A program made the position numbers and the translations under genes. A DNA stretch of 35,551 nucleotides, from assembly GCA_964582565.1 (NCBI GenBank), contig CAZOSY010000003.1:2178-37728 (forward strand). Direction: 5' to 3'. Of the stretch, positions 4,507-29,979 are shown one piece after another (position 1 is the stretch's first letter; every line of letters starts with the position of its first letter). The stretch is from an uncultured Bacteroidales bacterium. GTDB lineage: Bacteria > Bacteroidota > Bacteroidia > Bacteroidales > CAZZDX01. The notes under the pieces are model-generated. The model searched no databases. It was not told where the DNA came from and saw nothing but the letters and a program-made list of their open reading frames with translations.

Positions 4507-5463
4507 ATGAAAGTTACTGAACATCTAAAAAATACTGATAAGCCCATTTTTAGTTTTGAGATAATACCACCATTACGCGGGAAAAACAGTAATAACATTA
4601 TCAGGATTGTAGAACAATTGCAACAATTTAAGCCACCTTTTATTGATGTTACAAGCCATTCTTCTAAAATATATTATGAAAAAGATAAAGATGGTAAAGA
4701 AAAAAGATATATTACAAAAAAAAGACCAGGAACAACAGGTATATGCGGTGTTATACAAAACAGATTTAATATAGACACTGTTGCTCATATATTATGTAGT
4801 GGGTTTACAAGAGAAGAAACAGAAGATGTTCTTATTGAACTAAACTTTCTTGGAATACAAAATTTATTGCTTTTATACGGAGATGAAATAAATTATAAAA
4901 AAAATATAGAGAAAAACAGAACAGTAAATTTTTCTACTATTGACCTTATAAAACAAGTTAAAAATCTTAAAGATGCTAAATATATTGACGAAGTTATAAA
5001 TCCTGAGCCAATAGATTTCTGTATAGGCGTAGCTGCTTATCCTGAAAAACATTTTAAAGCTAAAACTCTAAAAGATGATATAAATTATCTGAAACAAAAA
5101 GTTGATGCAGGAGCCGATTATATTGTAACTCAAATGTTTTTTGATAATAACTATTTCTTTGATTTTGTAAAACTGTGCAGAGATGCAGGTATAACAGTTC
5201 CTGTCATCCCGGGTATAAAAATCCTTAACAAACAAAACCAGATAAACACTATACCTGAAAATTTCTATGTTAAAATACCTGAAACATTAAAAAATCAATT
5301 AACACAAAATCCTGAAAATGCCAGAGAAACAGGTATTAACTGGAGTATAAAACAATGTAAAGAACTGATAAATAATGGAGTAAAAAGCATTCATTTTTAT
5401 ATTATGAATGATACAAGTTCTGTTATACAGGTTATTAATAAACTTAACCTGAATAATTCATAA
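4507..5463 (+). CDS. metF: 5,10-methylenetetrahydrofolate reductase
   Basis: 318 aa. The N-terminal FSFEIIPP motif, the YPEKH segment and GADYIVTQMFFD are typical of MetF. The gene lies directly downstream of metH. Confidence 0.9.
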   Translation: MKVTEHLKNTDKPIFSFEIIPPLRGKNSNNIIRIVEQLQQFKPPFIDVTSHSSKIYYEKDKDGKEKRYITKKRPGTTGICGVIQNRFNIDTVAHILCSGFTREETEDVLIELNFLGIQNLLLLYGDEINYKKNIEKNRTVNFSTIDLIKQVKNLKDAKYIDEVINPEPIDFCIGVAAYPEKHFKAKTLKDDINYLKQKVDAGADYIVTQMFFDNNYFFDFVKLCRDAGITVPVIPGIKILNKQNQINTIPENFYVKIPETLKNQLTQNPENARETGINWSIKQCKELINNGVKSIHFYIMNDTSSVIQVINKLNLNNS

Positions 5464-5623
5464 GTTTTCGTTATGAGAGTTGAAAGTGCCAATAGAATTG
5501 GAAAGCACAGGATTGAGCATCGGAGATGTAGCAGAGCTACATTGAGAAGCGAAATCCGAGCATTTTCAATTATAGCAGGCAATTTCAACTCGTAATAGAT
5601 AATTTATGAATTATTCAGGTTAA
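5444..5623. repeat. 180-nt structured element E1 (unclassified ncRNA or MITE-like)
   Basis: Perfect 20-bp inverted arms TTAACCTGAATAATTCATAA (5444-5463) and TTATGAATTATTCAGGTTAA (5604-5623). Inner pairing is GAGTTGAAA/TTTCAACTC, and an internal hairpin is ATGTAGC-AGA-GCTACAT. The core is alignable to 9255-9397. Confidence 0.6.
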
Positions 5624-5770
5624 ACTTATTTGAATTATTTCTGGCATTAATTTTGATTATATATTTTTTAAAATGCCATATAAATGAATTAAAATTAAAA
5701 TGTTTAATATTGTTTAAAATTTTTTTTACAGACACTAATAATTTATAAATATATTTAAAATCAAAAAATT

Positions 5771-6832
5771 ATGAAAACCTCAAAAAATTATTCTTTTTTA
5801 TTGATAATCTGTCTTGGGTTGTTTATAGCTTCTTGTTCAACAACTTCTACCTCAGTACAGGTATTGGTTCCTGCAGAGATAACTGTCCCTCATCATATCA
5901 AAAAATTAGCAATTGCTAATCGTTCTTTACCTGCTAAAGGCGAACAGTTTTCCAATTTTATTGAAGGATTTCTTACAGGTGAATCTATTTGGGGAGACAA
6001 AGAAGGATCTAAAAGGTGTATTGAAGGACTTGCAAATAAATTAAATTCTTCACCAAGATTTGGTGCTACAATATCACATACATCTCTTAAAGGAACGGGA
6101 ACAAGAGAATTTTCTGTGCCTTTGCAATGGAATATGGTAAATAATATATGTAAACAATATAATGCAGACGCTCTAATCCTGCTTGAAACTTTTGATTCAA
6201 ACATTGCTTTTAAAACAGATAAAAAAACAAAAAAACAAAAAATTAAAAATAAAGAAACAGGAATAAGTAAAGATACTATTATAACTGAATATCTCGCTAA
6301 CTTGATTATCAATGTTAATGCTGGATGGCGAATCTATGACCCTGTTAACAAAAAAATAATTGATGAGGACTCTTTTATAGATGAAAAAAGATGGGGAAAA
6401 ACAGGTAAAAGTCCAGAAGATGTAGAAAGAAAATTACCTCCCAAAAGAGATGCAATAAATAGTGCCGGATATTTTGCAGGACAACAATTTGCAATAAGAA
6501 TATCACCTAACTGGAGAAACGTTGCAAGATATTACTATATTAAAGGACCTAATAATTACTTTAAAATGGCAAAGAATTATGCAAGAGCAGGTAACTGGGA
6601 TAAAGCTATGGACTTTTGGGAAAAACTAACCCCAAACCCAAATCACAAAATTGCAGGAAGAGCTTCTCATAATATGGCTGTAGCTAACGAAATGAAAGGA
6701 AACCTAAAACAAGCTCTCAAATGGGCAAATATTGCATATCAAGAACATAATATCAGAAAAGACAGATCTTATGTCAATGCTATTAGCCGTAGAATTATGG
6801 ATCAAGACAAACTTAAAGAACAAATGGAATAA
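5771..6832 (+). CDS. lipoprotein with C-terminal TPR-like repeats
   Basis: Signal peptide with lipobox LFIASC. The C-terminal helical repeats AKNYARAGNWDKAMDFWEKL and ANEMKGNLKQALKWANIAYQ resemble TPR units. Confidence 0.6.
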   Translation: MKTSKNYSFLLIICLGLFIASCSTTSTSVQVLVPAEITVPHHIKKLAIANRSLPAKGEQFSNFIEGFLTGESIWGDKEGSKRCIEGLANKLNSSPRFGATISHTSLKGTGTREFSVPLQWNMVNNICKQYNADALILLETFDSNIAFKTDKKTKKQKIKNKETGISKDTIITEYLANLIINVNAGWRIYDPVNKKIIDEDSFIDEKRWGKTGKSPEDVERKLPPKRDAINSAGYFAGQQFAIRISPNWRNVARYYYIKGPNNYFKMAKNYARAGNWDKAMDFWEKLTPNPNHKIAGRASHNMAVANEMKGNLKQALKWANIAYQEHNIRKDRSYVNAISRRIMDQDKLKEQME

Positions 6833-6910
6833 TATAACTGCCTGAAATAAAATTTGATTAGCTTATTGTAATAATCGGCAATCTACAGTAAACAGTCAGC
6901 AATTTTTTTG

Positions 6911-6918
6911 TAAATTTG
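6911..6918 (+). promoter_or_regulatory. orphan TAnnTTTG box (TAAATTTG) facing a repeat-filled noncoding tract
   Basis: An exact -7 consensus match, but the next plus-strand CDS starts about 480 nt away and has its own box at 7364-7371. Confidence 0.2.
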
Positions 6919-6985
6919 GTTCACAAATTTGTTAAATTCTTAACAACATCATCAGTTAGTCATGTTTGGCTACTGATTGCAAATT

Positions 6986-7048
6986 CCGTTGTAAATCCCG
7001 CATTTATACCGTTGGATATTATCCTACGGGATTTACCAACGGGGTAAA
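6986..7048. repeat. P-family hairpin repeat (CCGTTGG / CCAACGGGGTAAA / CCTACGGG motifs)
   Basis: TTTATACCGTTGGAT (7003-7017) and TTTACCAACGGGGTAAA (7032-7048) recur at 35364-35378 and 35393-35409. CCGTTGTAAATCCCG (6986-7000) is an alternative partner for CGGGATTTACCAACGG (7027-7042). Confidence 0.6.
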
Positions 7049-7074
7049 CTTTTGAATAAAGAAAATTGACTAAG

Positions 7075-7328
7075 GGATTCTAACAAAAGATTCCTCACTG
7101 CGTTCGGAATGACAGTTAATTATTTTTAGGTGGGTAAAGAGAGGCGTTTCGCCTTAGGCGAAACGCCTCTCTTTACCCATAATATATTAACCAAAATTAT
7201 CATTCCGAATGGAGCACATTCACTGGGTTCAGTGTAAACTCCACGGAATGAGGAATCTCAAGCTAAATTAAAATAGAGTAGATGGTAAAATACTATTTTA
7301 TGTAGCACCTCAAAATAATATTTAGCCA
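7075..7328. repeat. R-family nested-palindrome element, copy 1
   Basis: Central 23-bp perfect stem with a 3-nt loop (7131-7179). The middle arms are TTCGGAATGA/TCATTCCGAA. The outer arms are GATTCCTCA/TGAGGAATC (7089-7257). A 3-prime tail of about 70 nt follows. Direct copy of 9446-9675. Confidence 0.8.
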
Positions 7329-7363
7329 TAATTATTTTTTTTCTCGTCTTGACAAATTTTATG

Positions 7364-7371
7364 TAAATTTG
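7364..7371 (+). promoter_or_regulatory. Bacteroidota-type -7 promoter box TAAATTTG
   Basis: Lies 26 nt upstream of the ATG at 7397, within ACAAATTTTATGTAAATTTGT. That string is shared with 117-137 and partly with 24024-24045. Confidence 0.5.
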
Positions 7372-7396
7372 TCTTTTTTAATTAAAATATATAATT

Positions 7397-9178
7397 ATGT
7401 CAGGAAAAACATTTGTAGAAAAAATTTTAGGTGCAAAAAAAAACAGTATAGTTTTCAAAAAACCAAATATTGTCTTAACGCATGATAATACGGCAAGTAT
7501 TGAAAAAACATTTAAAAAAATGGGAGGAGATAAAGTTTCTGACCCAAATCAGTTATTAATTGTCTTAGACCATAATGCTCCGCCAACAAATGCGAAATTA
7601 GCAAATCAATATCAGGGAATAAGGAATTTTGTAAAATATCAGGGAATAAAAAAATTCTATGATGCAGGCATGGGAATTTGCCATCAATTGATGGCAAATC
7701 ATGCTGAACCCGGGATGTTGATTGCAGGAAGCGACAGTCATACCTGCACAGCCGGTGCCTTTAATACTTTAGCTGTTGGTATTGACAGAACAGAATCTGC
7801 CGGCTTATGGAAAAGAGAAGAGACATGGTTTCGTGTGCCTGAATCTATTAAAATTACTCTTAAAGGAAAATTAAATAAAGGAGTATATGCAAAAGATATC
7901 TCTCTCTGGATAATCGGTATGCTCGGCTCTGCCGGTGCTAACTATATGTCAATAGAATATCATGGACAAGGAGTAGAAACATTAACTATTGCACAACGAA
8001 TGACTTTAGCTAATCTTGCTTCTGAAATGGGAGCAAAAAATGCTGTGTTTCCTCCTGATAAAGTTTTAGCTAATTATTATGGAAAAGATAAAATTTCCGG
8101 AGTGTGGGCTGACCATGATGCAGAATATTTTAAAGAAATAGATATTAACTTAAATGATATTTTCCCGGTAGTTGCTGCTCCGCATTATGTTGACAATATA
8201 AAAGCTGTGTCAGAAGTTCAGGGCACAAAAGTAAATCAGGGATTTCTTGGAACCTGCACAAATGGTCGTCTCGAAGATTTACTTGTTGCATCCGAAATCC
8301 TTGAGAATAAAAAAATATCTGATGGATTTCAGTTAATTGTAACTCCGGCTTCAAAAGATATATATTTACAAGCTATTGAACAGGGAATAATCTCTAAACT
8401 GATGAAAGCAGGGGCAACAATACTCTCTGCATCTTGCGGACCTTGTCTGGGACTGGGGCAAGGCATTCCTGCTGACGGTTTTAATGTGATTTCTACTGCT
8501 AACAGAAACTTTTTGGGGAGAATGGGTAATAAAAATGCTAATATCTATTTAGCTTCACCGGCTTGTGTTGCTTATTCTGCTATTAAAGGTGAAATAACTG
8601 ACCCAAGAGGAATGCAATATAATGACAAATTTCCTTTTTCTAAAAAACAAACTTCCAGTGTTGAAATAAAAAAAGATGATAATCGTAAAGCAAATGGCAT
8701 CTGGAATTATAAAAATATTGATGACTTGAATACAGACCAGATGTTTGCAGGTAATCTGACATATAATATATTAAGTTCAGATGCAGAAGATATTATGCCT
8801 CATTTATTTAAGGGTTTTGATGAAAATTTTGCAGAAAATCTGCAAAAAAATGATATTATTATAGCAGGCAATAATTTTGGTTGTGGTAGCTCACGCGAAC
8901 ATCCTGCTGTTGGCTTGTCTTATGCAGGTGTTAAAGCTGTTATTGTTAAATCTGTTAATAGAATATTTTTTCGCTCTTCTGTCAATCAGGGCTTGCCTGT
9001 AATTATACTTGCCCAAGCTGTTGAGGCATTTAAACATGGAGATAAAGTAAATATAAATTTTGAAAAAGGTATTATAAATATTAATGATAAAATATTTAAT
9101 TTTGCTCCGCTCCCTGATAAACTAATGGAAATCTTTAAAGCAAAAGGACTGGTAAATTTTATTAAAAAAAACAGGTAA
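7397..9178 (+). CDS. aconitase-family dehydratase, fused LeuC-like large and LeuD-like small subunit (3-isopropylmalate or homoaconitate dehydratase type)
   Basis: 593 aa. The large-subunit motifs are GSDSHTCTAG plus the Fe-S ligand cysteines in GTCTNGR and SCGPCLG. The C-terminal ~170 aa carries the small-subunit motif GNNFGCGSSREH. Substrate cannot be assigned from sequence alone. Confidence 0.8.
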   Translation: MSGKTFVEKILGAKKNSIVFKKPNIVLTHDNTASIEKTFKKMGGDKVSDPNQLLIVLDHNAPPTNAKLANQYQGIRNFVKYQGIKKFYDAGMGICHQLMANHAEPGMLIAGSDSHTCTAGAFNTLAVGIDRTESAGLWKREETWFRVPESIKITLKGKLNKGVYAKDISLWIIGMLGSAGANYMSIEYHGQGVETLTIAQRMTLANLASEMGAKNAVFPPDKVLANYYGKDKISGVWADHDAEYFKEIDINLNDIFPVVAAPHYVDNIKAVSEVQGTKVNQGFLGTCTNGRLEDLLVASEILENKKISDGFQLIVTPASKDIYLQAIEQGIISKLMKAGATILSASCGPCLGLGQGIPADGFNVISTANRNFLGRMGNKNANIYLASPACVAYSAIKGEITDPRGMQYNDKFPFSKKQTSSVEIKKDDNRKANGIWNYKNIDDLNTDQMFAGNLTYNILSSDAEDIMPHLFKGFDENFAENLQKNDIIIAGNNFGCGSSREHPAVGLSYAGVKAVIVKSVNRIFFRSSVNQGLPVIILAQAVEAFKHGDKVNINFEKGIININDKIFNFAPLPDKLMEIFKAKGLVNFIKKNR

Positions 9179-9236
9179 TTTGCAATAACGAATATCCGAA
9201 AATTATGTGGGCAAATTGTATTTTTATAAAATATAA

Positions 9237-9415
9237 AGGGGAGTTCTAATAATTGGTTTTGTATATGAAAGTGAGCGAAAAATATCAGTATGAGGCGGAG
9301 GGTAAAATATTCCGCAGGCATAGCCATAGCTATGGTGAGGAAAGATTTTGCCCGATAACGAAATAATGATATTTTGCAGCCACTTGTAATAAAAAGTAAT
9401 TATTAGAACTCCCCT
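9237..9415. repeat. 179-nt structured element E2 (homolog of E1)
   Basis: Perfect 18-bp inverted arms AGGGGAGTTCTAATAATT (9237-9254) and AATTATTAGAACTCCCCT (9398-9415). Internal pairings are AAAATATCA/TGATATTTT and GCGGA/TCCGC, plus a CATAGC/GCTATG hairpin. Core blocks are shared with E1. Confidence 0.6.
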
Positions 9416-9445
9416 AAAGATATAGAAAAAAATCAATTGCTTAAT

Positions 9446-9675
9446 GGATTCTAACAAAAGATTCCTCACTGCGTTCGGAATGACAGTTAATTGTTTTTAG
9501 GTGGGGAAAGAGAGGCGTTTCGCCTTAAGCGAAACGCCTCTCTTTCCCCATAATATATTAACCAAAATTGTCATTCCGAATGGAGCTAAGCGGAATGAGG
9601 AATCTCAAGCTAAATTAAAATAGGCTAGCTGGTAAAATATTATTTTATGTAGCACCTCAAAATAATATTTAGCCA
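9446..9675. repeat. R-family nested-palindrome element, copy 2
   Basis: Same order and orientation as 7075-7328. The central palindrome at 9502-9550 has 22-bp arms. The right inner segment is shorter than in copy 1. Confidence 0.8.
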
Positions 9676-9762
9676 AAAAAAAGTTACTTTATAAACAAAT
9701 TTTAAACAAGTAATAGTTAAATTGTTGTTGCTATATGCTTGTTCTGTGAGTTATATAAACAA

Positions 9763-11742
<1,980 letters not shown>

Positions 11743-11759: not shown

Positions 11760-11908
11760 ATAATTATTTTATTATAAAAAACATAAATATTGCATTAAAA
11801 TCACAGATTTATTGACATTTTTTAATATTGTATTAATATAAAAATATAAATATTGTAAAAATGGGACTAACAGGGGAAAGTTGTTACAAAAACAAGAAGC
11901 TAGTCAAT

Positions 11909-11947
11909 AAAAAAACTGTTACTAAAAATTTAGTAACAGTTTTTTTT
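11909..11947 (-). terminator. bidirectional intrinsic terminator downstream of T9SS paralog A
   Basis: Stem ACTGTTACTAAA/TTTAGTAACAGT, flanked by an A-run on one side and a T-run on the other. It lies 22 nt past the stop codon. Confidence 0.75.
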
Positions 11948-11968
11948 ATATAATATTTTGATTTTTAT

Positions 11969-14923
11969 CTATCTGTTAACAATAATTTTGTGAGTATATA
12001 CATCTTCTTTGTTTTGCAATCTGATAAGATAAATGCCGTTATCTAAATTTTCAAGATTTATCTCTTTTGTATTCAGACCTGTATGAGGATAAATATTTTT
12101 CTCTATCAAAGTTTGTCCTAATATGTTCATTACAGATAAATGTATTGGGCTTAAAGAAAGAGAATTGAGTTCTATTTTAACAAATATCTTACCTGTTTTG
12201 GTAGGGTTAGGATAAATATTTATATTTGACTGGTTTGTTAATTCTTTTATATTCACGCCTTCTTCTGTTGTAAAAGAAAATTCAGGACTCCATTCTGATG
12301 TATCACGACTATGTATTGCTCTTACTCGCCAGTAATATGTTTTTAAACGGGCAAGTCCTCCTATACCTCCTATTTCAATGGTATCAATAGAGCTAGTATC
12401 AACAACAGGATTGTTGAAACCTGGTAAAGTATCATATTGTATTTCATAATAGTTTATTCCTGTAATTTCTTCCCATTTTAAACCAGGATTAACCTCTATG
12501 TCTGTTGCTCCATCAGCAGGATAAGTAAGATTAGCTTTATCAATTACAGTAAAATACCATACAGATGTCCAATCACTGGTATTGCTACTATTATATTTTG
12601 CTCTTACCCTCCAGTAATACTTGGTTCCAAATAAAAGTTCGTTGTTAGAAATCTGTACATAAGGCAAATTATCATCGGCAACAGTAAAACTATATTCAAA
12701 ACTATTAAAATCTGCAATAGTATCAATTTCAAAATCATAATTTGGCACACCTGCTATAGAATTGCATCTTAAAAATACATCAGGCATCATATCGTCAGCA
12801 CCATCATAAGGTGCAATAAGTGTTGCATTATTTACTGTTATAAATGTTCTTACTTGAGACCATGCAGATGCATCGCTATTATGTATAGCTCTTACTCTCC
12901 AGTAATATTTTGTTCCAAATAAGGACTGGACAGCAAATGCCTGTGTTTCAGGCAAATCACTGCTAACTGAAATAATGTTATATTGTGAACTGTTAAAATT
13001 ATTTGTAGTATCAACTTCGCAACTATAATATGTTACACCTGTTACAGCATCCCATTTTAATATCAAACTCAATGATTGATTTGTTACACCATCATTTGGA
13101 TAAATTTGATTTAAAGTATCAATAACTGTAAAGCTTCTTGTTAATGACCATGCAGAAGAATCCGTGCTGTTAAGAGCTTTAACTCTCCAAAAATATTTTT
13201 TACCAAATAATAATTCCTGCGTATTTACAGAAGTATTAACTGATATTAATGTATCTGAAAATAAAAATAAAGAGTTTGTATCTAATTCAATCATATAGGA
13301 AGTTGCTCCTGATATTGCAGCCCACTCTAATAATACATCCGGCATTTGGTTTGTTGCTAAATCTTCCGGTGATATTAAATTTGGAGAACCCGGCATTGTA
13401 TCCAAACTGGTAAAAAACCATATTGATGACCATGAACTTGTATCAATATTATGCATGGTTTTTACTCTCCAGTAATACTTGGTTTTAAACAATAGTGTAT
13501 CAAGGTTTATTTGTGATACATTATCAGTATCTGATATAAGAAGCGTACTGTTAAAATTTAAAGAAGTATCTATTTGTGTAATATAATTTGTTATTCCTGT
13601 AATACTATCCCATTTTAATGAAACATCTAACATTTGACCTGTTGCATTATTAACAGGTGAAATCAAACCAACAGTATTAATAACAGTAAAATTTCTTGCT
13701 GTTGACCAGTCAGAAGAATCAGTGCTATTAATGGCTTTAACTCTCCAAAAATATTTTTCAGCAAATAATAGTTCCTGTGTATTTACAGAAGTATTAGTTG
13801 ATGTTAATGTATCTGAAAATTGGAATAAAGAATTTGTATCTATTTCAATCATATAAGAAGTTGCTCCTGATATTGCGGACCATTCTAATAATGTATTTGG
13901 CATTTGGTTTATTGCTAAATCTTCCGGTGATATTAAATTTGGAGCATTTGGCATTGTATCCAAAGTAGTAAATGACCATTTTGGTGACCAAAAAGAAGAA
14001 TCGTTAGTTCCTATAGCTTTCATTCTCCAGTAATATGTTTGTCCAAACAAAAACGTATCAAGAGTTATCTTGCTGTTATTAGACCATATTAAACCTGAAT
14101 CTAAGGATGTTAAATCTATGGGTGTTGGGAAAAATAATATTTTAAGAGGATTAGGAAAAGAATTGTTTGTATCTAATTCTATTTTATATAAATTAATTCC
14201 CAAAACAGGGTCCCAATCTAATAACACATTATTTGGCGACAGTTCTGTTGCTAAATTTTCGGGTAATACTAAATTTGGAGCACTTGGTATTGTATCTATT
14301 GTGGCGAAAGACCATACTGATGACCATAAACTGGTGTCAGCACTATGTCTGGCTCTTATTCTCCAGTAATATTTAGTTCCGTATAACAATTGGCTTGAAC
14401 TCATACCTATAGCAGAACCATTTACAAAGCCAGATATAAGATGCGTGCTGTTAAAATTTATGATAGTATCAATTTGATAATCATAATTTGTTAATCCTGT
14501 AATGCTATACCATGTTAATAATGCATTTGGTAACTGATATTTGGCACCATTATCAGGTAATTCTAAGGCAACGGTATTAATGACAGTAAAATTTCTTACT
14601 GCTGACCAATAAGAAGAATCGCTGTCATCTATAGCTTTAACTCTCCAAAAATACTTTTCACCAAATAAAAGTTCATGAGCATTAACAGTAGTTACTGCTG
14701 ATGTAAGTATTATCGGATTAATGAACAAAGAATTTGTATCTATTTGAATTTTATAATACAATCCAAAGTCGCCTGTTACCGGCTCCCAATTCAGTAATAC
14801 ATTTGGCATTTGGTCAACTGCCGAATTGCTTGGCGACACCAAACTTGGTGTATAAATCCTTGTCTGTGCTAAAATTCCTGAAACAACTAAAACAAACATA
14901 AAAACAAAAAATATTTTTTTCAT
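11969..14923 (-). CDS. T9SS-sorted repetitive surface protein, paralog A (nine FN3-like modules plus C-terminal sorting domain)
   Basis: 984 aa with signal peptide MKKIFFVFMFVLVVSGILAQ. Nine modules of about 93 aa each end in Y[YF]WR[VIM][KR][AT]...D[ST]S.WS...F. The C-terminal ~85 aa (IYPNPTKTG...GIYLIRL...KIIVNR) matches the type A T9SS sorting domain. Confidence 0.85.
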   Translation of the reverse strand: MKKIFFVFMFVLVVSGILAQTRIYTPSLVSPSNSAVDQMPNVLLNWEPVTGDFGLYYKIQIDTNSLFINPIILTSAVTTVNAHELLFGEKYFWRVKAIDDSDSSYWSAVRNFTVINTVALELPDNGAKYQLPNALLTWYSITGLTNYDYQIDTIINFNSTHLISGFVNGSAIGMSSSQLLYGTKYYWRIRARHSADTSLWSSVWSFATIDTIPSAPNLVLPENLATELSPNNVLLDWDPVLGINLYKIELDTNNSFPNPLKILFFPTPIDLTSLDSGLIWSNNSKITLDTFLFGQTYYWRMKAIGTNDSSFWSPKWSFTTLDTMPNAPNLISPEDLAINQMPNTLLEWSAISGATSYMIEIDTNSLFQFSDTLTSTNTSVNTQELLFAEKYFWRVKAINSTDSSDWSTARNFTVINTVGLISPVNNATGQMLDVSLKWDSITGITNYITQIDTSLNFNSTLLISDTDNVSQINLDTLLFKTKYYWRVKTMHNIDTSSWSSIWFFTSLDTMPGSPNLISPEDLATNQMPDVLLEWAAISGATSYMIELDTNSLFLFSDTLISVNTSVNTQELLFGKKYFWRVKALNSTDSSAWSLTRSFTVIDTLNQIYPNDGVTNQSLSLILKWDAVTGVTYYSCEVDTTNNFNSSQYNIISVSSDLPETQAFAVQSLFGTKYYWRVRAIHNSDASAWSQVRTFITVNNATLIAPYDGADDMMPDVFLRCNSIAGVPNYDFEIDTIADFNSFEYSFTVADDNLPYVQISNNELLFGTKYYWRVRAKYNSSNTSDWTSVWYFTVIDKANLTYPADGATDIEVNPGLKWEEITGINYYEIQYDTLPGFNNPVVDTSSIDTIEIGGIGGLARLKTYYWRVRAIHSRDTSEWSPEFSFTTEEGVNIKELTNQSNINIYPNPTKTGKIFVKIELNSLSLSPIHLSVMNILGQTLIEKNIYPHTGLNTKEINLENLDNGIYLIRLQNKEDVYTHKIIVNR

Positions 14924-14969
14924 ATTATTAATTTATTATTAAAAAATATTATTATTCATTTTAGTCAAT

Positions 14970-15008
14970 AAAAAAACTGTTACTAAAAATTTAGTAACAG
15001 TTTTTTTT
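14970..15008 (-). terminator. bidirectional intrinsic terminator downstream of T9SS paralog B (duplicate of 11909-11947)
   Basis: Identical hairpin and flanking runs, offset by exactly 3,061 nt. Confidence 0.75.
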
Positions 15009-15029
15009 ATATAATATTTTGATTTTTAT

Positions 15030-17984
15030 CTATCTGTTAACAATAATTTTGTGAGTATATACATCTTCTTTGTTTTGCAATCTGATAAGATAAATGCCGT
15101 TATCTAAATTTTCAAGATTTATCTCTTTTGTATTCAGACCTGTATGAGGATAAATATTTTTCTCTATCAAAGTTTGTCCTAATATGTTCATTACAGATAA
15201 ATGTATTGGGCTTAAAGAAAGAGAATTGAGTTCTATTTTAACAAATATCTTACCTGTTTTGGTAGGGTTAGGATAAATATTTATATTTGACTGGTTTGTT
15301 AATTCTTTTATATTCACGCCTTCTTCTGTTGTAAAAGAAAATTCAGGACTCCATTCTGATGTATCACGACTATGTATTGCTCTTACTCGCCAGTAATATG
15401 TTTTTAAACGGGCAAGTCCTCCTATACCTCCTATTTCAATGGTATCAATAGAGCTAGTATCAACAACAGGATTGTTGAAACCTGGTAAAGTATCATATTG
15501 TATTTCATAATAGTTTATTCCTGTAATTTCTTCCCATTTTAAACCAGGATTAACCTCTATGTCTGTTGCTCCATCAGCAGGATAAGTAAGATTAGCTTTA
15601 TCAATTACAGTAAAATACCATACAGATGTCCAATCACTGGTATTGCTACTATTATATTTTGCTCTTACCCTCCAGTAATACTTGGTTCCAAATAAAAGTT
15701 CGTTGTTAGAAATCTGTACATAAGGCAAATTATCATCGGCAACAGTAAAACTATATTCAAAACTATTAAAATCTGCAATAGTATCAATTTCAAAATCATA
15801 ATTTGGCACACCTGCTATAGAATTGCATCTTAAAAATACATCAGGCATCATATCGTCAGCACCATCATAAGGTGCAATAAGTGTTGCATTATTTACTGTT
15901 ATAAATGTTCTTACTTGAGACCATGCAGATGCATCGCTATTATGTATAGCTCTTACTCTCCAGTAATATTTTGTTCCAAATAAGGACTGGACAGCAAATG
16001 CCTGTGTTTCAGGCAAATCACTGCTAACTGAAATAATGTTATATTGTGAACTGTTAAAATTATTTGTAGTATCAACTTCGCAACTATAATATGTTACACC
16101 TGTTACAGCATCCCATTTTAATATCAAACTCAATGATTGATTTGTTACACCATCATTTGGATAAATTTGATTTAAAGTATCAATAACTGTAAAGCTTCTT
16201 GTTAATGACCATGCAGAAGAATCCGTGCTGTTAAGAGCTTTAACTCTCCAAAAATATTTTTTACCAAATAATAATTCCTGCGTATTTACAGAAGTATTAA
16301 CTGATATTAATGTATCTGAAAATAAAAATAAAGAGTTTGTATCTAATTCAATCATATAGGAAGTTGCTCCTGATATTGCAGCCCACTCTAATAATACATC
16401 CGGCATTTGGTTTGTTGCTAAATCTTCCGGTGATATTAAATTTGGAGAACCCGGCATTGTATCCAAACTGGTAAAAAACCATATTGATGACCATGAACTT
16501 GTATCAATATTATGCATGGTTTTTACTCTCCAGTAATACTTGGTTTTAAACAATAGTGTATCAAGGTTTATTTGTGATACATTATCAGTATCTGATATAA
16601 GAAGCGTACTGTTAAAATTTAAAGAAGTATCTATTTGTGTAATATAATTTGTTATTCCTGTAATACTATCCCATTTTAATGAAACATCTAACATTTGACC
16701 TGTTGCATTATTAACAGGTGAAATCAAACCAACAGTATTAATAACAGTAAAATTTCTTGCTGTTGACCAGTCAGAAGAATCAGTGCTATTAATGGCTTTA
16801 ACTCTCCAAAAATATTTTTCAGCAAATAATAGTTCCTGTGTATTTACAGAAGTATTAGTTGATGTTAATGTATCTGAAAATTGGAATAAAGAATTTGTAT
16901 CTATTTCAATCATATAAGAAGTTGCTCCTGATATTGCGGACCATTCTAATAATGTATTTGGCATTTGGTTTATTGCTAAATCTTCCGGTGATATTAAATT
17001 TGGAGCATTTGGCATTGTATCCAAAGTAGTAAATGACCATTTTGGTGACCAAAAAGAAGAATCGTTAGTTCCTATAGCTTTCATTCTCCAGTAATATGTT
17101 TGTCCAAACAAAAACGTATCAAGAGTTATCTTGCTGTTATTAGACCATATTAAACCTGAATCTAAGGATGTTAAATCTATGGGTGTTGGGAAAAATAATA
17201 TTTTAAGAGGATTAGGAAAAGAATTGTTTGTATCTAATTCTATTTTATATAAATTAATTCCCAAAACAGGGTCCCAATCTAATAACACATTATTTGGCGA
17301 CAGTTCTGTTGCTAAATTTTCGGGTAATACTAAATTTGGAGCACTTGGTATTGTATCTATTGTGGCGAAAGACCATACTGATGACCATAAACTGGTGTCA
17401 GCACTATGTCTGGCTCTTATTCTCCAGTAATATTTAGTCCCGTATAACAATTGGCTTGAACTCATGCTTGGAGCAGAACTGCTTACAGAGCCAGATATAA
17501 GATAAGTGCTGTTAAAGTTCATAATAGTATCAATTTGATAATCATAATTTGTTAATCCTGTAATACTATGCCATTGTAGTAATACATTTAGTAACTGGCA
17601 TTTGGCACCATTATCAGGTAAATTTAAAGTAACAATATTAATAACAGTAAAATTTCTTACTGCTGACCAATTAGAAGAATCGCTGTCGTCTATAGCTTTA
17701 ACTCTCCAAAAATATTTTTTACCAAATAAAAGTTCATGAGCATTAACAGTAGTTACTGCTGATGTAAGTGTTACCGGGTTGGCAAATGAATCAGTTATAG
17801 CTATTTGAATTTTATAATACAATCCAAAGTCGCCTGTTACCGGCTCCCAGTTCAGTAATGCATTTGGCATTTGGTTAACTGCCGAATTACTTGGCGATAC
17901 CAAACTTGGTGCATAAGTCCTTGTCTGTGCTAAAATTCCTGAAACAACCAAAGCAAATGCGAAAACAAAAAATATTTTTTTCAT
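15030..17984 (-). CDS. T9SS-sorted repetitive surface protein, paralog B
   Basis: 984 aa. Residues 174-984 are identical to paralog A. By my hand count there are about 31 differences within residues 1-173. Confidence 0.85.
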   Translation of the reverse strand: MKKIFFVFAFALVVSGILAQTRTYAPSLVSPSNSAVNQMPNALLNWEPVTGDFGLYYKIQIAITDSFANPVTLTSAVTTVNAHELLFGKKYFWRVKAIDDSDSSNWSAVRNFTVINIVTLNLPDNGAKCQLLNVLLQWHSITGLTNYDYQIDTIMNFNSTYLISGSVSSSAPSMSSSQLLYGTKYYWRIRARHSADTSLWSSVWSFATIDTIPSAPNLVLPENLATELSPNNVLLDWDPVLGINLYKIELDTNNSFPNPLKILFFPTPIDLTSLDSGLIWSNNSKITLDTFLFGQTYYWRMKAIGTNDSSFWSPKWSFTTLDTMPNAPNLISPEDLAINQMPNTLLEWSAISGATSYMIEIDTNSLFQFSDTLTSTNTSVNTQELLFAEKYFWRVKAINSTDSSDWSTARNFTVINTVGLISPVNNATGQMLDVSLKWDSITGITNYITQIDTSLNFNSTLLISDTDNVSQINLDTLLFKTKYYWRVKTMHNIDTSSWSSIWFFTSLDTMPGSPNLISPEDLATNQMPDVLLEWAAISGATSYMIELDTNSLFLFSDTLISVNTSVNTQELLFGKKYFWRVKALNSTDSSAWSLTRSFTVIDTLNQIYPNDGVTNQSLSLILKWDAVTGVTYYSCEVDTTNNFNSSQYNIISVSSDLPETQAFAVQSLFGTKYYWRVRAIHNSDASAWSQVRTFITVNNATLIAPYDGADDMMPDVFLRCNSIAGVPNYDFEIDTIADFNSFEYSFTVADDNLPYVQISNNELLFGTKYYWRVRAKYNSSNTSDWTSVWYFTVIDKANLTYPADGATDIEVNPGLKWEEITGINYYEIQYDTLPGFNNPVVDTSSIDTIEIGGIGGLARLKTYYWRVRAIHSRDTSEWSPEFSFTTEEGVNIKELTNQSNINIYPNPTKTGKIFVKIELNSLSLSPIHLSVMNILGQTLIEKNIYPHTGLNTKEINLENLDNGIYLIRLQNKEDVYTHKIIVNR

Positions 17985-18021
17985 ATTCTTAATTTATTAT
18001 TATAAAAAATTAGAAATTATT

Positions 18022-28560: not shown

Positions 28561-28572
28561 TTTTACAAGTAT

Positions 28573-28705
28573 GAGTCCACTCCGAAAAGTCAAAATTGTG
28601 TCATTCCGAATTTAGTTCGGAATCTCTAATTTCAATAATATCAAAAGATGCTGAAACAAGTTCAGCATGACAAATAAGTAAATATCTACTTTTCGGAGCG
28701 GACTC
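28573..28705. repeat. 133-nt nested-hairpin element E3
   Basis: The closing helix is GAGTCCACTCCGAAAAGT / ACTTTTCGGAGCGGACTC (17 of 18 pairs). The inner hairpins are ATTCCGAA-TTTAG-TTCGGAAT and ATGCTGAA-ACAAG-TTCAGCAT. It shares the GTCATTCCGAA motif with the R family. Confidence 0.7.
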
Positions 28706-28754
28706 AAGATTAATAACATCAAAATAAATAATAAATTTTAAAAAAATATATACA

Positions 28755-29495
28755 TTGAAAAAAACAAATATCATCTTTGGCATAAGACCTGTAATTGAGA
28801 TAATAAAATCAGGAAGAGAAATTGACAAATTACTTATACAAAAAGGGCTGAAAAGCAGAAACTTTTTTGATTTAAATTTTTTGATACAGAAATATAAAAT
28901 TCCTTGTCAATATGTTCCTGTTGAGAAATTAAACAATATAACACCAAAAAATCATCAGGGTGTAATTGGATTTATATCAGAAATAGAATATCAACATATT
29001 GAAAACATATTACCTTTTGTATATGAACAAGGCAAAAATCCTCTGATATTAATTCTTGACAGAATTACAGATGTTAGAAACATGGGAGCAATAGCAAGAA
29101 CATCTGAGTGTGCCAATGTTGATGCCATTATAGTTCCAACAAAAGAAACAGCACAAATAAACGCTGATGCCATAAAAACCTCTGCCGGAGCTTTAGCCAA
29201 AATACCTGTATGCAGAGAAGATAATCTTATACATACTTTTAACTTCTTGAAAAACAGCGGATTACAAATTATTGCCTGTACTGAAAAATCTGACGTATAT
29301 TACAACACTATTGATTTTACAATACCAACAGCTATAATCATTGGCTCTGAAAAAGATGGAATATCTCAAAAATATTTGAGAGTATCTGACAATATTGTAA
29401 AAATACCAATATTAGGAAAGATAGAATCGTTAAATGTTTCAGTAGCAACAGGAATAATACTTTATGAAGCTATAAGACAAAGGGCTAAACATTAA
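28755..29495 (+). CDS. rlmB: SpoU/TrmH-family 23S rRNA 2-prime-O-methyltransferase (RlmB-like)
   Basis: 246 aa, TTG start. Shows an N-terminal substrate-binding domain (IFGIRPVIEIIKSG) and the SPOUT motifs VRNMGAIARTSECANVDAIIV, IIGSEKDGIS and ESLNVSVATGIILYE. Confidence 0.8.
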   Translation: MKKTNIIFGIRPVIEIIKSGREIDKLLIQKGLKSRNFFDLNFLIQKYKIPCQYVPVEKLNNITPKNHQGVIGFISEIEYQHIENILPFVYEQGKNPLILILDRITDVRNMGAIARTSECANVDAIIVPTKETAQINADAIKTSAGALAKIPVCREDNLIHTFNFLKNSGLQIIACTEKSDVYYNTIDFTIPTAIIIGSEKDGISQKYLRVSDNIVKIPILGKIESLNVSVATGIILYEAIRQRAKH

Positions 29496-29979
29496 TTAGT
29501 GTTTGTTCATAATGTCAGATTTCTTTGTTATGCTTGTCTTTCAAATCAGTCATTTACAAAAGTAAACTCCTGATTTTCAAGACTGCGCAAGCCTCGAACT
29601 CGAACATTCTGAACTAAACACTTACTTTATAGACAGACATTAATTGGTGTCTGTTCGTAATATCAAAACTTATCAGTCGGGCGACTGACCGATACTTCAA
29701 CAACCCTGAAACAAGTTCAGGATGACGTTGTTCGGCACAAGTGTGTCCATCAGGCAATTGCCTGATAAAATCGTAATTCTCTTTGGGCATGGTTATTGAG
29801 CAAAGCCGAAATATAGATGTTTCATTATAACATTTCTCCCACAAATTTTACCGAAGAACCAATATTTTTTACTTTATTTATAATTTTTTTATATTTTTGT
29901 ATTTTGTATCAGTTACGATAAACCCCGTAGGATATATCCTACGGGGTAAATGCCGTCAGGTCAGGCAATTGCCTGACGG
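29490..29979. repeat. palindrome-dense noncoding tract with duplicated rlmB 3-prime end
   Basis: The 30-nt direct repeats at 29490-29519 and 29638-29667 match at 25 of 30 positions. The perfect palindromes are ATCAGGCAATTGCCTGAT (29749-29766), CCCCGTAGGATATATCCTACGGGG (29923-29946) and GTCAGGCAATTGCCTGAC (29960-29977). There is also a hairpin CCTGAA-ACAAG-TTCAGG at 29705-29721. Confidence 0.75.

Follow-up and report, generated by a model that had tools for sequence, protein, structure and literature searches.

The miniature inverted-repeat transposable elements of bacteria (MITEs) have been described as 100- to 200-bp elements that carry terminal inverted repeats (TIRs) and target-site duplications (TSDs) and yield long stem-loop transcripts (PMC2229807). 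Their movement is without experimental proof (PMC2229807, PMC3184786). For MITEs derived from insertion sequences (IS), mobilisation in trans is presumed (PMC2229807, PMC3184786), and for ERIC there is "no experimental support" for mobilisation by a transposase (PMC2229807). A survey from 2024 covered the MITEs of 183,232 genomes, and among the passages matched in its text none put ERIC in a cross-phylum family (PMC11602168). Here we analysed a 35,551-nt stretch of contig CAZOSY010000003.1 (assembly GCA_964582565.1), referred to below as the window, which is AT-rich (G+C of about 30%), chromosomal and derived from an uncultured salt-lake bacterium. It holds two hairpin-forming elements, E1 and E2, that an earlier note had read as members of a structured RNA family. 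Our analysis indicates that E2 (9238-9414) is very probably one copy of a 177-bp non-autonomous foldback MITE and that E1 is a copy of a sister subfamily.

Copy depth was estimated by mapping assembly-graph contigs of four metagenome runs onto the window and comparing the k-mer depth of each element's interior with that of its flanks. The interior of E2 was about 20 times deeper than its flanks (136 versus 6.1, 614 versus 28.5, 254 versus 14 and 160 versus 6.8). Contigs broke at the ends of E2, with many different sequences continuing outwards from 9232-9237 and from 9418-9422, and no contig joint skipping E1 or E2 was seen in this mapping. A metagenome scan recovered 43 loci, namely, 36 E2-type and 7 E1-type pattern matches, the E1 of the window included. 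The 36 E2-type copies were 97 to 100% identical, had 30 different flanks on the left and 29 on the right, and carried the terminal repeats GGGGAGTTCTAATAATT / AATTATTAGAACTCCCC in essentially every case. The source bacterium carries about 20 to 30 such near-identical copies of E2.

We then compared the sequences bordering these copies. In 20 of the 30 non-redundant E2 copies, the 4-mer before GGGG was identical to the 4-mer after CCCC (TAAA, TTAA, TTTA, TATA, TTAT, TAAT), whereas permuted pairing of the flanks gave an expectation of 5.75 matches and a maximum of 15 in 10,000 trials. E2 is thus flanked by a 4-bp TSD at TWWW sites. None of the 30 copies had a matching 5-bp flank. All E2 and E1 copies were intergenic, often abutting stop codons, and they occurred in both orientations: at gene 3' ends, 14 were in sense and 13 in antisense, and the difference within 60 nt of the stop codon (11 versus 4) was not significant. 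Four pattern matches from Balneolaceae were rejected as elements, being conserved coding sequence, and locus L146, which lies inside a 9-kb open reading frame (ORF), was set aside.

E2 therefore shows the features by which MITEs are recognised: it is non-coding and shorter than 300 bp, its TIRs are shared, its copies are dispersed and its target site is duplicated. Since both elements are multi-copy, near-identical, sharp-ended and found in many contexts, with shared termini and, for E2, target-site duplication, E1 and E2 are two MITE subfamilies and not two RNA genes. The earlier note had argued against a MITE on the ground that E1 and E2 do not share their termini; this argument fails, as the copies within each subfamily do share terminal repeats.

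The perfect 18-bp inverted repeat that the same note had placed at the base of E2 is present (AGGGGAGTTCTAATAATT, 9237-9254; AATTATTAGAACTCCCCT, 9398-9415), with its outer A and T forming part of the flanking TAAA duplication. The 179-nt sequence bounded by this repeat folds into a single rod hairpin of about 67 pairs, with a minimum free energy of -74.3 kcal/mol (z = -9.9 against dinucleotide shuffles), and E1 gives a similar rod (-80.6 kcal/mol, z = -12.8). Pairing of the 3' with the 5' subterminal block leaves a conserved GA bulge and G.T pairs. The parts of E2 and the two further hairpin repeats of the window are listed in the table.

Coordinates of E2, its parts and two further hairpin repeats in the window
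Feature	Position	Strand	Observation
E1, sister MITE subfamily (TTAA / CCTGAATAATTC...GAATTATTCAGG / TTAA)	5444-5623	+	depth 4-5x flanks; model R1 179.6 bits
Left copy of 4-bp TSD, TAAA	9234-9237	.	identical 4-mer at 9415-9418
E2 left TIR, GGGGAGTTCTAATAATTG	9238-9255	+	common to all E2 copies; breaks of sequence-graph unitigs and loose ends at 9232-9237
5' subterminal conserved block, GTTTTGTATATGAAAGT	9256-9272	+	same offset in E1, L224, L129 and L170; close variants in L248 and L279
Apical module: helix, CGCAG, hairpin CATAGC-CATA-GCTATG, GTGAG, helix	9307-9346	+	model R2 37.3 bits (E = 8.6e-9), partly by construction
3' subterminal conserved block, CACTTGTAATAAAAAG, partner of 5' block	9381-9396	+	CTYGTAATARA kept in E1, E2, L129 and L170
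E2 right TIR, AATTATTAGAACTCCCC	9398-9414	+	loose ends start at 9418-9422
Right copy of 4-bp TSD, TAAA	9415-9418	.	matches 9234-9237
E4, third hairpin repeat, very high-copy, apex CAGGAGTTTAC-TTTT-GTAAATGACTG	29491-29645	-	matches ERIC central inverted repeat

E1 behaved similarly at a lower copy number of about 4 to 5 in the source bacterium. Its depth exceeded that of its flanks (21 versus 5; 106 versus 25-28), and contigs left it with different outward sequences from 5442-5446 and from 5621-5623. The seven E1-type matches comprise the window copy and six fetched loci, two of which (L160 and L167) share flanks, so that about five further contexts are represented. All are flanked by TTAA or CTAA. 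In the window, E1 overlaps the last 20 nt of metF, whose final six codons (LNLNNS) and TAA stop come from the left arm of E1 (5444-5463). In addition, a JGI contig (L088) departs from the window exactly at 5444 and joins an identical E1 to a glycosyltransferase gene; this represents either another copy of E1 or an assembly chimera. At positions 400-419 of that contig, the E1 left arm ends the glycosyltransferase ORF in the same frame as in metF.

The relationship between E1 and E2 was less direct than had been proposed. The shared blocks are literally present and collinear in both elements: GTTTT-NNN-TATGA-R-AGT starts 19 nt into each (counted from 5444 and 9237), and CTYGTAATARA stands on the 3' side of both. 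However, the similarity of the core was not above that of shuffled sequence when the pair was aligned directly, since the local alignment score of 17 compares with 17.8 +/- 2.3 for dinucleotide shuffles, 353 of 500 of which scored as well. The closing helices do differ, as claimed, although AATAATT occurs in each.

Further relatives (L129, L224, L190 and L170) bridge the two elements. The shared-block pattern retrieved one true homologue from the reference genomes, in Belliella marina (L129); its closing helix is of a third type, its base resembles that of E1 and its apex that of E2. A second pattern, derived solely from E1, retrieved L224 and L190 (Chlorobiota metagenome-assembled genome [MAG]), which are 85% like E1 and have the apex CAGACATAGCTTTAGCTATGGTGAG. 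The apex of L224 aligned with that of E2 at the same coordinates (77-102) with a score of 35, compared with 17.5 +/- 2.3 for shuffles (z = 7.4; 0 of 1,000 as high). Because the E1-like L224 matches the E2 apex in register, we judge E1 and E2 to be homologous, on evidence that is transitive and runs via the intermediates only.

We searched reference genomes with the E2 apex pattern CATAGC-N4-GCTATGGTGAG and obtained at least 117 loci, mostly at the tips of 160- to 180-nt rod hairpins that are multi-copy in their genomes; the 21-mer at 9319-9339 recurs at such tips in many phyla. Among the matches listed, carriers of the apex include MAGs of Syntrophomonas, Planctomycetota, Acidobacteriota and Myxococcota, a Hyphomicrobiaceae chromosome, Parashewanella curva, Saprospiraceae, Ichthyobacteriaceae and Comamonadaceae. 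Multi-copy rod hairpins tipped by this motif occur in Bacteroidota-like bacteria, Chlorobiota, Firmicutes, Planctomycetota, Acidobacteriota, Myxococcota and several classes of Proteobacteria. The flanks of these elements were CTAG, TCA...TCA or TTA...TTA, and the terminal repeats varied by genome. The shared core reads C-AAGGC-[helix]-GCGCAG-C-CATAGC-N4-GCTATG-G-TGAG-CA-[helix]-AACG, in which both helices and the outer stem covary and the irregular segments are conserved. The hallmark of the superfamily is thus the irregular apical helix and not the terminal repeat.

Model R2, a model of the superfamily core built without any window sequence, found L129 at 22.6 bits (E = 5e-4) even though the apex of L129 misfits the search pattern. 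It also found the Bacteroidota/Chlorobiota members L227, L279 and L248; L279 has the E1-type base motif, and L227 and L248 have close variants of it (TTCGCTATGAGA/TCGTAACAGA; TTCGTTGCGAAA/TTGTAGTAGA). The model gave no match to E1. E2 also shares the CGCAG motif, the rod architecture and the multi-copy state, none of which is part of the search pattern. By comparison, E1 and E2 are members of a large superfamily of rod-hairpin repeats that spans many bacterial phyla.

Several members of this group were unusual in form or setting. The Hyphomicrobiaceae chromosome CBDCWE010000003.1 (L242, L261, L273, L282, L291 and others) carries a 268-bp CTAG-flanked form that combines a closing helix with two inner stem-loops; the conserved apex is present in just one of the two. 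In L291, two ends are abutted tail to tail. The cores L343 (Cupriavidus pMTS3) and L344 (Variovorax plasmid 4) are 78 to 89% identical to the Comamonadaceae core L294. On these large plasmids, they sit without annotation amid genes of acyl-CoA and carboxylase operons. Matches in Ralstonia and Mitsuaria had no annotated feature underneath. A full-text literature search for the apex motif returned only GFP primers.

In a further step, we investigated whether the fold itself has been maintained. In an alignment of five lineages (E1, L224, L129, L170 and E2), both sides were changed in 27 of the 52 predicted pairs. In a model-based alignment of 11 copies, 32 of the 52 pairs changed on both sides and 89.8% of cells paired, a figure reached by 0 of 500 shuffles and flattered by the fitting of this alignment to the structure; sliding the pairing partners lowered pairing to about 40%. 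The covariation test thus came out as the earlier note had anticipated, as did its view of E1 and E2 as one family of conserved size and core blocks whose paired helices change in sequence. Among the young E2 copies, three compensated pairs were present (GGAGAG/CTCTCC in L172, AAGTA/TACTT in L148 and one in L147), whereas 0.40 were expected (P = 0.005 by position-shuffling simulation).

Moreover, the fold was specific to one strand. The plus strand folded 10 to 24 kcal/mol more stably than its complement in all five lineages, and the opposed bases in their rods were G.T in 30 cases versus A.C in 2 and A.G in 20 versus C.T in 2. Among 28 superfamily representatives, the plus strand was the more stable in 26, with G.T at 174 versus A.C at 37 and A.G at 132 versus C.T at 10 (P of about 1e-22 and 1e-28, from counts not weighted for kinship). 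Since the helices covary and G.T and A.G mismatches far exceed A.C and C.T, we infer that the fold of the plus strand is under selection as a single strand, either a transcript or single-stranded DNA (ssDNA). Either form could be the one selected, because G.T and G.A are tolerated mismatches in RNA and in ssDNA alike.

Such a fold might suggest that E1 and E2 are structured non-coding RNA genes, with the blocks as functional RNA motifs, closing helices that drift by compensation and the RNA as the product. The rod folds, the covariation with conserved irregular loops between covarying helices, the strong one-strand excess of G.U and G.A and the sense orientation of both window elements 3' of their upstream gene all agree with this explanation, which we nevertheless consider clearly improbable. 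RNA genes would not be expected as some 20 to 30 near-identical copies with TSDs in unrelated contexts, nor in both orientations in similar numbers (14 versus 13 at gene 3' ends). Promoter and terminator signals at the element were not above chance, no canonical terminator was found in the gap that holds E2, and conserved synteny was lacking. The Rfam family that the earlier note had thought worth seeking (6S, retron-like or another of about 180 nt) was not found either: at the gathering score, Rfam gave no match in the window and none on 10 superfamily loci, and its permissive E-value mode gave only chance matches over 5300-9800. Furthermore, none of the RNA runs searched contained the element sequence. 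An RNA product would be compatible with the MITE interpretation only as the structured transcript of a mobile element.

Still less probable, in our estimation, is that the elements are ssDNA hairpins moved by a HUH/Y1-type enzyme that recognises an imperfect, bulged hairpin on one strand, as in REPIN-RAYT or IS200/IS605-like "peel and paste" systems. The strand-specific fold with conserved bulges, the tolerance of G.T and G.A mismatches in ssDNA too, the location of the conserved part inside the hairpin instead of at its tips and the failure of our scans to find a DDE partner would suit such a mechanism. Those systems, however, make no TSD and use a fixed tetra- or pentanucleotide target, whereas E2 has variable 4-bp duplications; neither GTAG/CGTC-tagged REPs nor a REP doublet architecture was seen, and a non-exhaustive search (top 25 Pfam families) saw no RAYT or TnpA gene beside any copy. 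We give next to no credence to a purely DNA-level MITE whose hairpin is a by-product of long inverted repeats of foldback origin, without single-stranded selection: TIRs, TSDs, copy number and the neutral look of recent polymorphisms (A.C at least equal to G.T) fit it, but compensated pairs exceed expectation, G.T and A.G far outnumber A.C and C.T, and the GA bulge, the G.T pairs and the apical G and A bulges are common to lineages with diverged arms, a sharing of asymmetric features that implies maintenance after the common ancestor.

Some other identities were rejected. In a coding element, TATGA would provide the start and GTAATAG the stops, but the frame that begins with the ATG of the 5' block is 33 codons long in E2, 43 codons in E1 and 7 codons in L129, and both the lengths and the sequences of these ORFs differ, with unrelated peptides. 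A hammerhead-like reading of UGAGAG...GAAAG lacks stem II and has no Rfam match. Integron attC, retron and 6S identities were discarded, their defining features being missing; for instance, no reverse transcriptase gene, as would accompany a retron msr/msd, stands beside E1 or E2. At locus L149 (1419-1450), 31 nt left over from the left end of E2 (GAGGAGTTCTAATAATTGGTTTTGTATATGA) lead directly into a ThiF/MoeB-like ORF that apparently begins at the ATG of the conserved TATGA block.

We then compared the superfamily with ERIC. An Escherichia coli ERIC copy, GCAGGAAGGCG-ACAAGCGAG-[long hairpin]-GGTGAGCG-AACGCAGACGCAGCA, has the scaffold of the superfamily with another apical hairpin. Aligned with 72 superfamily cores, ERIC reached z values of up to 8.2 and exceeded 3 in 18 of the 72 on the plus strand, compared with 0 of 72 on the minus strand; model R2 placed ERIC in the correct register at only 8.4 bits. 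The third repeat of the window, E4, was also related: its local alignment with E. coli ERIC scored 27, compared with 15.8 +/- 2.2 for shuffles (0 of 1,000 as high; 21 of 26 positions identical; z = 5.0). E4 reads GAGGC..GCGCAG on its 5' side, folds at -47.5 kcal/mol (z = -4.5), scores 18.1 bits with model R1 (E = 0.013) and has a summed depth some 35 to 350 times that of its flanks, depending on the bin. E. coli ERIC/IRU is thus significantly related to the superfamily by alignment, with a link to E2 that is transitive, and this cross-phylum group of ERIC relatives was previously unlinked.

Several results weigh against the MITE interpretation of E1 and E2 or against the wider relationships built on it. 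Ten of the 30 E2 copies lack matching flanks. This is likely to reflect chimeric short-read assembly across the repeat, although not proven, because some of the mismatching copies lie on contigs that have one of their flanks in common with a different contig (L155 with L164; L181 with L178 and L162). The TTAA at E1 is ambiguous as a TSD, as TTAA is its own reverse complement. An empty site was not seen at this locus, where all 10 strain contigs covering it carry E1 and those reaching E2 carry E2. As for a parent element, a TIR scan of about 400 kb of same-community contigs found no longer element with the same ends, ORF clustering for multi-copy genes in the fetched contigs found none, a Pfam scan of 125 ORFs showed no transposase among the top 25 families, and the E1-type end occurred in 185,579 reference genomes only on MITE-sized copies; IS copies are lost from short-read assemblies. 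The link between E2 and the superfamily rests partly on a pattern derived from E2 itself, and direct alignment with ERIC was not significant for E2 (z = 0.9) or E1 (z = 0.2). Moreover, recent E2 polymorphisms show no G.T excess (5-6 G.T versus 9-10 A.C), which would be expected if selection acts on the lineages that propagate and copies in decay are left to drift. Finally, an ordinary double-stranded cut-and-paste MITE does not explain the strand-specific fold, so the mechanism is incomplete.

With E1 and E2 taken as MITEs, new copies would be made by a trans-acting enzyme that cuts its target with a 4-bp stagger. Our default guess for this enzyme is a DDE transposase, for which IS5-like or IS1380-like families would fit the target-site types. 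Across the superfamily, the duplications (TA or CTAG, TNA, TTAA, TWWW) presumably resemble those of the IS5 family and, in the case of TTAA, those of the IS1380/piggyBac group. Likely protein-recognition sites in the folded single strand are the apical module and the asymmetric subterminal loop, in which GTTTT..TATGA faces GTAATA (with the GA bulge and two G.T pairs). Locally, read-through from the upstream gene would place a -74 kcal/mol E2 hairpin in the 3' untranslated region of the aconitase-family gene, and E1 would have rewritten the C-terminus and stop codon of metF. A bolder proposal, which we regard as unlikely but less so than either alternative of RNA genes or HUH/Y1 movement, is that E1, E2 and E4 belong to a pan-bacterial superfamily of strand-specifically folded mobile hairpins that includes ERIC and possibly Correia, and that the conserved apical helix, not the termini, is recognised by a widely distributed mobilisation or host factor on an RNA or ssDNA form. 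If true, this would explain why ERIC-type elements never had a transposase assigned and would represent a new mode of MITE propagation.

The genes of the window are metH, metF, a DUF6340 gene, an aconitase-family gene and gyrB, together with genes for several proteins that bear type IX secretion sorting tails. E1 lies between metF and the DUF6340 gene, and E2, next to the aconitase-family gene and gyrB, is inserted at a TAAA site 58 nt 3' of the former; both are in sense orientation in the 3' region of the respective upstream gene. Contigs from marine and salt-lake metagenomes, the salt-lake samples being of Antarctic type, carry genes identical to those of the window, and the closest MetF among 185,579 reference species was 64% identical. 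A search for tRNA and tmRNA genes found none, and a plasmid collection contained no match to E1 or E2. A further dispersed repeat, E3 (28570-28711), has sharp ends, about 100 times the depth of its flanks and the modules TGTCATTCCGAA...TTCGGAATCTC and GCTGAAACAAGTTCAGCATGACA. It had been suggested as a distant relative of E1 and E2, which was rejected, given 8.6 bits with model R1 (E = 2.3) and no match with model R2.

Two other repeats were observed in the window. A 3,061-bp tandem duplication (11901-14960 and 14962-18020), identical over its first 300 nt, encodes in each copy a 984-amino-acid protein that bears fibronectin/Ig repeats and ends in a type IX secretion sorting tail; either a genuine recent duplication or an assembly artefact would account for it. 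A composite repeat occurs in two copies that are 93 to 94% identical, one upstream of the aconitase-family gene (7054-7331) and one directly downstream of E2 (9425-9678). Each copy contains a 49-nt G+C-rich palindrome with a perfect stem (7131-7179; 9502-9550). This repeat has a high depth. Some contigs skip 9476-9590 or 9487-9565, which shows that other copies vary in whether they contain the inner module.

In summary, E2 is neither a riboswitch nor a small RNA gene nor a terminator, and the earlier note was half right: the fold is structured, covarying and strand-specific, yet it is carried by a MITE, multi-copy and with shared terminal repeats in each subfamily, rather than by an RNA gene. 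E2 alone is an ordinary selfish repeat, to be masked when such a genome is annotated, and a further case of a known element class. Like the IS-derived MITEs RUP/IS630-Spn1 and Nezha/ISNpu3, it is small and non-coding, with TIRs, a TSD, AT-rich targets and a stable predicted fold (PMC2229807, PMC3184786); Nezha was compared by description only. Unlike these, E1 and E2 have no parent IS that we could find, and their TIRs differ between subfamilies while interior motifs are conserved, the opposite of what binding of the tips by a shared transposase predicts. REPINs, mobilised by RAYT, are also vertically persistent, multi-copy, hairpin-forming repeats for which the single-stranded fold is thought to matter (PMC3116915; 10.1101/2021.07.10.451892). 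They are, however, doublets of 20- to 40-nt REPs with GTAG/CGTC tags, an adjacent RAYT gene and no TSD, none of which was seen for E1 and E2; the arms of the latter are not self-palindromic REPs, and no RAYT gene lies beside the window copies. Integron attC sites share with E1 and E2 a conserved structure of variable sequence, strand-specific folding and extrahelical bases, but they have RYYYAAC/GTTRRRY core sites, are arranged in cassette arrays beside an integrase and lack a TSD, whereas E1 and E2 are dispersed beside housekeeping genes.

The Correia elements (CREE/NEMIS) of Neisseria are 100- to 156-bp intergenic foldback MITEs that resemble E2 in having a long TIR, a structured transcript (predicted in the case of E2) and no known cognate transposase. 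The Correia 5' motif ACAAGGCGA..CGCAGACA resembles superfamily member L272 (z = 4.3), and GGCAACGC stands on the Correia 3' side, while neither the apex nor the TIR of Correia (TATAGTGGATTAA...) is related, and Correia elements duplicate TA. Gonococcal Correia copies matched model R2 weakly (9-14 bits, E = 0.08-0.27), and a viral-contig scan for Correia was empty; a relationship with the superfamily is thus a lead only, suggested by these motifs. Two 2.17-Mb Neisseria gonorrhoeae chromosomes are listed as plasmids in PLSDB (NZ_CP119140.1 and NZ_CP119142.1), and the copies were taken from a chromosome listed in this way.

Also close in kind is ERIC/IRU (RU-1) of Enterobacteriaceae and Vibrio, which, like E2, is an intergenic, multi-copy, non-coding imperfect palindrome that forms one long stem-loop and has TIRs and a TSD (PMC2229807). 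Its scaffold, GCAGGAAGGCG..AGCGAG-[hairpin]-GGTGAGCG-AACGCAG, parallels CAAGGCG..GCGCAG-[hairpin]-GGTGAGCA..CAACGCAG of the superfamily. E2 differs from ERIC in its host, an uncultured Bacteroidota-like bacterium with type IX secretion, in its length (177 bp versus about 127 bp), in duplicating 4 bp (TWWW) instead of TA, in lacking AAGGCG and AACG, and in its apical hairpin, CATAGC-CATA-GCTATG, in place of the ERIC central inverted repeat (CAGGAGCTTACAT/AAGTAAGTGACTG). Strain typing has relied on ERIC for decades, while its origin and movement lack an explanation. The ERIC-like cross-phylum superfamily, with its covarying helices and one-strand mismatch signature, is the part of these results worth following, as a concrete handle on the question of ERIC mobility.

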